IMG/VR virus record: IMGVR_UViG_2693429768_000001
Location: 1 to 64,000 of that record
Strand: one strand, 5' to 3'
Origin: a virus
Lineage: Duplodnaviria; Heunggongvirae; Uroviricota; Caudoviricetes
Length of the DNA: 64,000 nucleotides
Shown: positions 1-1,741 of the stretch, in pieces
How the letters are laid out: each line of letters starts with the position of its first letter
How positions within the stretch are numbered: position 1 is the first letter of the stretch
The notes under the pieces: generated by a model
Told to the model about the DNA's origin: nothing
Seen by the model: only the letters and a program-made list of their open reading frames with translations
Databases searched by the model: none
Position numbers and translations under genes: made by a program

Positions 1-86
1 AAGTCTGGCGCGCACTCCATGTGTTAGCCGTGCTCAACAGGGGGATCTTTTCACCGAAAAAAAAAAAAGTCTGGCGCGCACTCCAT
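1..86. repeat. Direct repeat pair AAGTCTGGCGCGCACTCCAT (1-20 and 67-86) bracketing a 46-bp segment that ends in an A12 homopolymer (57-68)
   Basis: Read directly. First copy abuts the window edge, so true repeat length is unknown. Lies in frame inside the fibre ORF. Confidence 0.9.
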
Positions 87-1741
87 TGGATAACGGCCAG
101 TGTGCTTGTTTTAGCCAGAATATCGCGACCGACTGACGTTAAATCAGTCTGAGCTACCGTATCCTTACCAGTGAAATAAGGCAGTTTGTTTGCACCAGTC
201 GCAAGGGCAGCGAGAGCGGTTAAAGTTGCATCCAGAGGCTGTTTGCCTGCCAGCGCATTTGTCATTGTTGTCGCAAAGTTCGGGTCATTGCCAAGTGCTG
301 CGGCAAGCTCATTCAGGGTATCAAGAGCTTCTGGTGATGAACCAACCAATGCGGATATGGCAGCTCTTACATAAGCGGTCGTAGCAATCTGCGTGTTATT
401 CGTACCCTGTGCAGCGGTAGGCGCAGTAGGGACACCCGTTAATGCAGGGCTTGCCAAAGGCGCTTTGAGAGCCAAGGCATTGTTGATAGTTGTGCTGTAA
501 TTCGGGTCGTTATTGATCGCAGCCGCTATTTCTTTCAGCGTATCCAATGTGCCAGGCGCACCGTTGATAAGTGCAGTTATAGCTGCCTTAACAAAGGCTG
601 TATTTGCGATCTGCGTGCTGTTTGTACCTTGCGCTGCCGTCGGCGCGGTTGGCGTTCCTGTCAGACTCGGGCTTTCTATTGGCGCTTTGGTATCAGCCAG
701 ATCTTTTATAGACTTAACAGCTTTAGGGGTAGCCGCCATTGTTTCGCTGTCGCTGTTAGTTGCGCTACTGAGCTGAGTGATGCCTTTCGCTGTCAATGAA
801 GCTGTTGGCACACCAGTGATCTGATTCCAGGGATGTGTATGACTGGATGGTGCCTTTCCGGCTGCTAGATCGTATGCAGCTTTAACCGCTTTTGGCGTTG
901 CAGCTAATGTTTCAGAAGTGCTGTTGGTGTCGCTACTGAGCTGAACTATCCCTTTTTGTGTCGTGGTAGCATCCTGGGCTGTATACTTCCCGTTAGCCAG
1001 GTCATATGCTGCCTTGACAGCTTTCGGTGTGGCGGCCAGCACTTCGGACGTGCTGTTAGTGGCACTACTGAGCTGAACTAATCCCTTTTGCGTTGTGCTT
1101 GCATCCTGCGCCGTATACTTGCTTTTCGCCAGATCGTAGGCTTTTTTAACTGCCAGCGAACTTGCAGCAACATCACTTCTGGTACTGGTTACAGAGTCTG
1201 AAATATCAATGCCGATCGTGCGGTTGATACGCTTGGATGTATCAATCATCTCCTGGGTAATGGCAGATACACCAGCAGGGATATTCACCGTACAAACAAG
1301 CAGCTCCCCATCTCCTAACTGATATGAATCGGTATAGGTTCTGGAAACAAATTCAGCCGCATGAATATGTGACGCGGTATTCACCTGATAGGTATCTTCT
1401 CCAAGGAGGTATCTTCCCTTCAGCACAATTGCATATTTCTTGCCTGCACTAAGTGCAAGAGAAATATCCTTACGTTGCTGAATAGTTACCTGGTAGAATT
1501 CACCAATATCCACCGACGCCGCGCCTGCGGTTTTATCACCATCCACTGAGGTGATTAACAGGTTCATCCCACCGCCAGGCTTAGGTAAGAAACCGGCATA
1601 AAATCCCGGGTCAACAATCCCCCTGAATTTTCGGTTTAGCGCGGCTGACAGATATGGTTCGTGGTATTGCACATCAGCCACCAGAGCCAACGACTCGGGT
1701 GATGGGTAAGTAACCGATGTGACAACTGTAACGTCATTCAT
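1..1741 (-). CDS. Tail fibre protein, N-terminal constant part (P1 S-like); 3' end runs off the window
   Basis: Manual translation from ATG 1741 (RBS AAGGA): [10 protein letters not shown]...; triplicated [17 protein letters not shown]...[12 protein letters not shown] fibre repeats; frame open to position 1; absent from ORF track, consistent with no in-window stop. Confidence 0.75.
   Translation of the reverse strand, partial: [580 protein letters not shown]

Follow-up and report, generated by a model that had tools for sequence, protein, structure and literature searches.

The DNA analysed here, hereafter the window, comprises bases 1-64,000 of an E. coli draft contig of 76,098 nt (CXZQ01000023.1, assembly GCA_001286225.1), and represents a P1-like phage-plasmid, the first 3 kb of which are 96-98% identical to P1, P7, RCS47 and hundreds of plasmids from E. 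coli and Salmonella. The genes on the minus strand are arranged in the order S (tail fibre), R, gp16, bplA, pmgA and sit, and the translation of the tail-fibre ORF S remains in frame up to the edge of the window. The reverse complement of window positions 1-18280 is exactly sequence L006, i.e. the range 1-18280 of the record, reversed. Since base 1 of the window is also base 1 of the contig, the anomaly described below is located at a physical contig end. The constant part of S (Sc) is ~300 bp longer than that of P1 and P7 at window positions ~780-1140 (minus strand), so that P1 matches it in two pieces with 92% coverage; the extra sequence consists of additional copies of an internal repeat unit containing.LAATP..., and the same longer form was also found in a few plasmids, i.e. 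CP103660, MK410117 and MK455768. Elsewhere in the window, GATGTGTGCTGGAGGGA is part of short repeats that are found in either orientation, at positions 25353-25372 and 25507-25526 (+) and at 26623-26661; they resemble the iterons to which RepA binds in the plasmid replicon of P1 (incC/incA).

The tail fibres of P1-type phages are varied by the invertase Cin, which acts on cix sites; this host-range switch belongs to the same family as Gin/gix of Mu, Hin/hix and Pin. Window coordinates can be obtained from those of the P1 record (AF234172) by subtracting 36400. In that record cixR is annotated at 36471-36490 with the Cin crossover at 36480/36481, where the invertible C-segment ends on its right side, and the annotation maps onto the beginning of the window. 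On the S coding strand of the relatives the full 26-bp site reads TTATCCAATACC TT GGTTTAAGAGAA, and it is complete in the contigs L008 and L005 and in the plasmids L003 and L004 (see below). According to the P1 map and the synteny S-R-16-bplA-pmgA-sit, the position in the window is the one where the constant part of the tail-fibre gene meets the variable part, as expected of a cix site. It thus shares with the P1/P7 cixR its location at the Sc/Sv junction of S, upstream of R, gp16, bplA, pmgA and sit, its flanks, which are 96-100% identical to those of P1-like plasmids, and the retained part of the outer half-site, of which only ATTGGATAA (85-93) survives. It differs in that the inner half-site and the core have been overwritten: when window 68-93 is aligned with the P1 cixR, 9 of the 12 outer positions and only 1 of the 12 inner positions agree, and the core is AC in place of the AA of P1. 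Sites of the cix/gix/hix type are 26 bp long, with two 12-bp imperfectly inverted half-sites and a 2-bp core, and, the deposited 68-93 does not have this structure and, as printed, is not a functional cix site. The original prediction had recognized TTATCCAA(T) as a half-site of a Cin/Gin-type crossover site and had regarded the other half-site as replaced; the position of the P1 annotation bears out the former, this being the outer half-site, and the alignment, in which the inner half-site is overwritten, the latter. A search with a degenerate cix pattern allowing three mismatches returned no match in the window, nor does the 64-kb window contain a partner inverted site, a second copy of the inverted repeat or another cix-like site. 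In P1 and CP103660 the partner site and the serine invertase gene with its enhancer are found 4.2 kb leftward, past the end of this contig, and cin, cixL and the remainder of the C-segment accordingly lie beyond it. The features of the locus are summarized in Table 1.

Table 1. Features at the left edge of the window and at the junction within S.
Feature	Position	Strand	Basis or status
Start of the variable part (Sv) of S, at the outer edge of the inverted repeat of the C-segment; also the draft contig end	1..56	-	genuine
Very probably spurious block, A12 + GTCTGGCGCGCACTCC (= AAAAAAAAAAAAGTCTGGCGCGCACTCC), in place of canonical CTGGTACCGAGTTCTCTTAAACCAAGGT	57..84		alignment
Ten putative filler A's, the portion of A12 not copied from native sequence	57..66		string model
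Second copy of the first 20 bases of the contig	67..86		exact repeat of 1-20
Position of cixR, 26 bp, crossover between 80 and 81	68..93	-	P1 GenBank annotation and sequences
Constant part (Sc) of the tail-fibre gene S, intact	85..1741	-	translation, homology to P1 S
Junction on the S coding strand: CCAATGGAGTGCGCGCCAGAC-T12-CGGTGAAAAG			
Strings spanning the junction in the deposited version: CCAATGGAGTGCG; GACTTTTTTTTTTTTCGG			

The pattern at the window edge consists of a duplicated 20-mer and a homopolymer. The 20-mer AAGTCTGGCGCGCACTCCAT is present in exactly two copies in the window, the first at positions 1-20, and was never seen twice in 100 shuffled versions of it. The run A12 at 57-68 is the sole homopolymer longer than 8 nt in the 64 kb, and shuffled windows contain on average 0.04 A12 or T12 runs. 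Both the duplication and the A12 run are thus far above chance expectation, which leaves aside whether the organism itself carries them. From start to start the distance between the two copies is 66 nt, and they are separated by 36 nt of native sequence and the A-run, the last two A's of which belong to the second copy. The original prediction of a duplicated 20-mer and a 12-nt A-run in frame was correct in its coordinates; its spacing was slightly off in that two A's of the run sit inside the repeat. A shift by +1 or -1 at the homopolymer leads to a stop within 1-7 codons in both alternative frames.

The nature of the change became evident when the window was aligned with two plasmids and with P1. 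Positions 1-56 encode 18 residues of the variable part of S, and in the P1 annotation they belong to that end of the invertible segment which carries Sv. They show 100% identity to plasmid CP027309 and match P1 at 55 of 56 positions; positions 85-140 are likewise 100% identical to CP027309, and the sole difference between the two sequences is the block in between. This block is an overwrite of 28 nt by 28 nt; it takes up the inner half-site and the core and extends over 3 nt of the outer half-site. In the protein, YLGLRELGTS is replaced with 10 different residues, and the S frame is kept because the length is unchanged. Such an equal-length overwrite does not support the small insertion with duplication that had been suggested for this locus. 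Within the second 20-mer copy, positions 67-84 are very probably spurious, and the final two bases (AT, 85-86) are native, their match to the repeat being coincidental. The original prediction had further suggested a comparison with the cix region of P1, and had named an ordinary cix site as an observation that would tell against it; the relatives do carry an ordinary cix site here. Several other origins of the pattern were considered and rejected. A recombination by Cin at a quasi-cix site is at odds with the boundaries 57/84, which are off the crossover 80/81, and with the new sequence being a local copy plus a homopolymer. An insertion of a retro-element or a poly(A)-cDNA was discarded, since on the plus strand the copy comes after the A-run and on the minus strand it comes before a T-run, so that on neither strand is the copied sequence followed by poly(A). 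A diversity-generating retroelement (DGR) and an IS footprint were also dismissed. A mixture of C-segment orientations was discarded because both orientations read alike for ~0.6 kb past cix.

The same comparison bears on the idea that the homopolymer is a slipped-strand contingency switch, in which the length of T12 in S would toggle the receptor-binding part of the tail fibre. A 12-nt homopolymer is unusual in a coding region, and in this respect the locus is similar to the homopolymer contingency loci of Haemophilus, Neisseria and some phage tail genes, which also place a long homopolymer in a surface or adsorption gene. That a one-base shift would soon truncate S is also in line with this idea, but it is trivially true and silent on the reality of the tract. 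In contrast to those loci, the tract here is neither conserved nor polymorphic in length: it is found on one contig only, no relative has any homopolymer at the position, and their sequences there are unrelated and non-repetitive, without length variation. Moreover, the switch presupposes that the tract is real, which is itself unlikely, and P1-type phages already vary the fibre by Cin inversion. We consider such a switch, as put forward in the original prediction, to be extremely unlikely.

The junction turned out to be a singleton in all the collections searched. In PLSDB and INPHARED it was unmatched, the best match being 84% over positions 1-130 and every record lacking the block, and it was not found in complete E. 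coli genomes. The exact junction patterns were absent from IMG/VR, from a set of one genome each of 185,579 species (GTDB) and from JGI metagenomes, and when the junction peptide was used to search proteins, all that came back were sequences with the canonical YLGLRELGTS. The truncated S protein (window 2-1741, with the FFFF... end) occurs on one contig only among ~15 billion proteins. The identical Sc allele ends in ...AVIQ on 8 contigs (P0024) and continues with YLGLRELGT on 2 others (P0026), and a sister Sc allele ends in ...AVIQ on 39 contigs (P0023). Dozens of other draft contigs also stop at the same cixR site; draft contigs break here because the C-segment opens with an inverted repeat (~0.6 kb) that is common to cixL and cixR. 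Comparison of the flanks of cixL and cixR in the relatives places the boundary between repeat and unique sequence between window positions 84 and 85. The anomaly lies wholly inside the terminal 84 nt, hence no more than ~k bases from where the contig ends and next to the edge of a repeat, and the copy of the 20-mer taken as the source begins at the first base of the contig.

An independent assembly of an identical plasmid is provided by the Logan contig ERR134553_118 (L008, 15,552 nt), which is 100.000% identical to window positions 85-15608 (15,524 nt, no mismatches, no gaps); the next closest contigs are only ~99.6% identical. ERR134553 may hold the reads of this very assembly or those of a sister isolate with the same plasmid. 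At window position 84 L008 departs from the window, reads the canonical ACCTTGGTTTAAGAGAACTCGGTACCAG (28 nt) and then ends. The block is thus missing from an independent assembly of a plasmid that is identical over 15.5 kb. The canonical site in L008 also led us to discard a tandem 66-bp array extending leftward, as did the end of the contig at base 1. The original prediction had allowed, as a fallback, for an assembly or contig-end artefact, and this is what the contig-end position and the canonical site in the identical plasmid support. In our view, bases 57-84 are very probably an artefact of short-read draft assembly at a contig end and absent from the plasmid, and the real DNA almost certainly carries a canonical P1-type cixR, at which Cin crosses over between the constant and the variable parts of S.

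A discontinuity at window position 56 was observed in three independent assemblies: the block boundary in the contig studied here, the stop of L008 (at 15552) and an N in L005 (SJJK01000017.1, at 17925), which falls on the base that matches window position 56. With the k=31 of Logan a run of 30 nt would be expected, and L008 halts 2 nt earlier, just before window position 56. This suggests a mixed base beside Sc, as would arise if the two repeat arms differed at that base and Cin were inverting the segment in the cultures that were sequenced. Among complete P1-like plasmids, the arms of the C-segment repeat are indeed not identical near cix (L003, 1777-1860 vs 6034-6120(-); L004, 563-650 vs 8904-8990(-)): the arms read GAGTACGG vs GAGCACGG in CP027309, and GGTGAAAAG vs GGTAAAAAG in CP103660.

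If the block were instead a real mutation, it would have to be a templated block substitution, arising by template switching or by aberrant repair after Cin cleavage, in which 18-20 nt were copied from 66 bp downstream and a T-run was added, so that cixR was destroyed and the segment locked with S in frame. The open ORF and the unchanged length fit this scenario, an in-frame outcome being expected of a selected mutation too, and a contig end 56 nt past the block might suit a graph with k=57. However, the junction is a singleton, and the site is canonical in the plasmid that shows no difference over 15.5 kb; furthermore, the block boundaries 57 and 84 miss the Cin cleavage point at 80/81, and the T12 run has no nearby template, the donor having only TTT. 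Two coincidences would be needed as well, namely the equal lengths of the replaced and the replacing sequences and a source copy that starts at base 1 of the contig, the latter being expected under an assembly artefact. A mutation of this kind is very unlikely. Very unlikely indeed is the related claim that the block is a real, T12-bearing substitution of the inner cixR, which would have locked the tail-fibre segment in one orientation and made fibre expression depend on a slippage-prone homopolymer, with slipped-strand switching in place of inversion.

How an assembler could produce exactly this sequence can be worked out for the preferred reading, a short-read assembly artefact. A de Bruijn contig enters a repeat by k-1 bases, so the 84 bases on the repeat side of the boundary imply k=85; with this k, the number of 85-mers that contain position 56 as well as the first base outside the repeat is exactly 56. 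In the route that we infer, a Velvet-type de Bruijn graph would have been built with k=85, and a mixed base located in the repeat, 29 nt from its boundary, would have given rise to a short terminal node of 56 k-mers, which would then have been scaffolded to the long node across the minimum gap of 10 bases. The first k bases of the scaffold would have been printed from the opposite-strand descriptor, i.e. 56 nt of the short node, an A10 buffer and 19 nt of the long node, and the remainder would have been spelled from the forward descriptor. It must also be assumed that the gap flanks, which overlap by 56 nt, were merged later. As a result, 28 canonical bases would have been exchanged for A10 and the first 18 bases of the contig, with the length and the reading frame kept. 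Velvet presumably prints the first k bases without an N mask and pads gaps with at least 10 adenines, so that the ten A's at 57-66 would be an unmasked buffer.

This route was written as a string model, which, by plain string operations, regenerates all 64,000 nt exactly from the canonical sequence. In a scan over every odd value of k between 21 and 127, with nodes of length 1 to 119 and gaps of 1 to 30, only k=85 with a node length of 56 and a gap of 10 was found to fit; as three free parameters were fitted to three boundaries, the uniqueness of the fit is in itself no evidence. Within the model, the evidential weight lies in the agreement of the fitted values with quantities that have a meaning of their own (k-1=84, the 56 k-mers and position 56). 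Several other orientations and build orders of a Velvet scaffold, examined on paper, either leave the canonical 28 nt in place or produce a T-run, and only one arrangement fits. With the artefacts that de Bruijn assemblers and their companions (Velvet, SSPACE, GapFiller) leave at contig ends and scaffold gaps, the locus shares an anomaly no more than k-1 bases from the end, an inverted-repeat boundary, a filler homopolymer, a self-copy of the contig terminus and an unchanged length; the model in terms of graph descriptors reproduces it exactly if the presumed Velvet behaviours and the assumed merging of the flanks hold. We found no published description of exactly such an artefact of A-filler plus self-copy.

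A Velvet pipeline as the origin of this assembly is inferred. A widely used pipeline of this type runs Velvet at k = 66-90% of the read length, followed by SSPACE and GapFiller, and its authors call the latter two programs greedy and prone to false joins (PMC5320598). That proneness to false joins (PMC5320598) also speaks for another technical origin, under which the canonical site would still be the true one: the read or amplicon may have been chimeric, or a program that extends contigs or fills gaps may have added false sequence. The contig-end position, the singleton status and the canonical sibling sequence fit such an origin equally well, but a chimeric read leaves unexplained both the equal length of the block and the match of 56, 10 and 85 to graph quantities, and we regard a different technical artefact of this kind as rather unlikely. 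A further protein record concerns the cin/S locus: in P0013 (UniRef UPI0020CC4367, Salmonella enterica, 81 aa), named 'recombinase family protein', the N-terminal part resembles an invertase (...GRFFFHVMGALA) and passes directly into tail-fibre S sequence. Either the locus has truly been rearranged there, or this is a second chimera made by an assembler.

The probable assembly artefact has a consequence for the protein databases, since RefSeq WP_261289702.1 (= P0021, 'tail fiber protein, partial [Escherichia coli]') is derived from this ORF, and 10 of its last 28 residues are probably fictitious. More generally, a homopolymer combined with a self-copy within ~k bases of the end of a draft contig should not be taken as a switch or as the scar of an insertion. 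If the junction were real after all, it would represent a rare case of an invertase site that has been disabled in frame, with a slippage tract in its place. Most probably, the pattern is real in the file and not in the organism, and the site underlying it is the long-known Cin/cix switch of P1.
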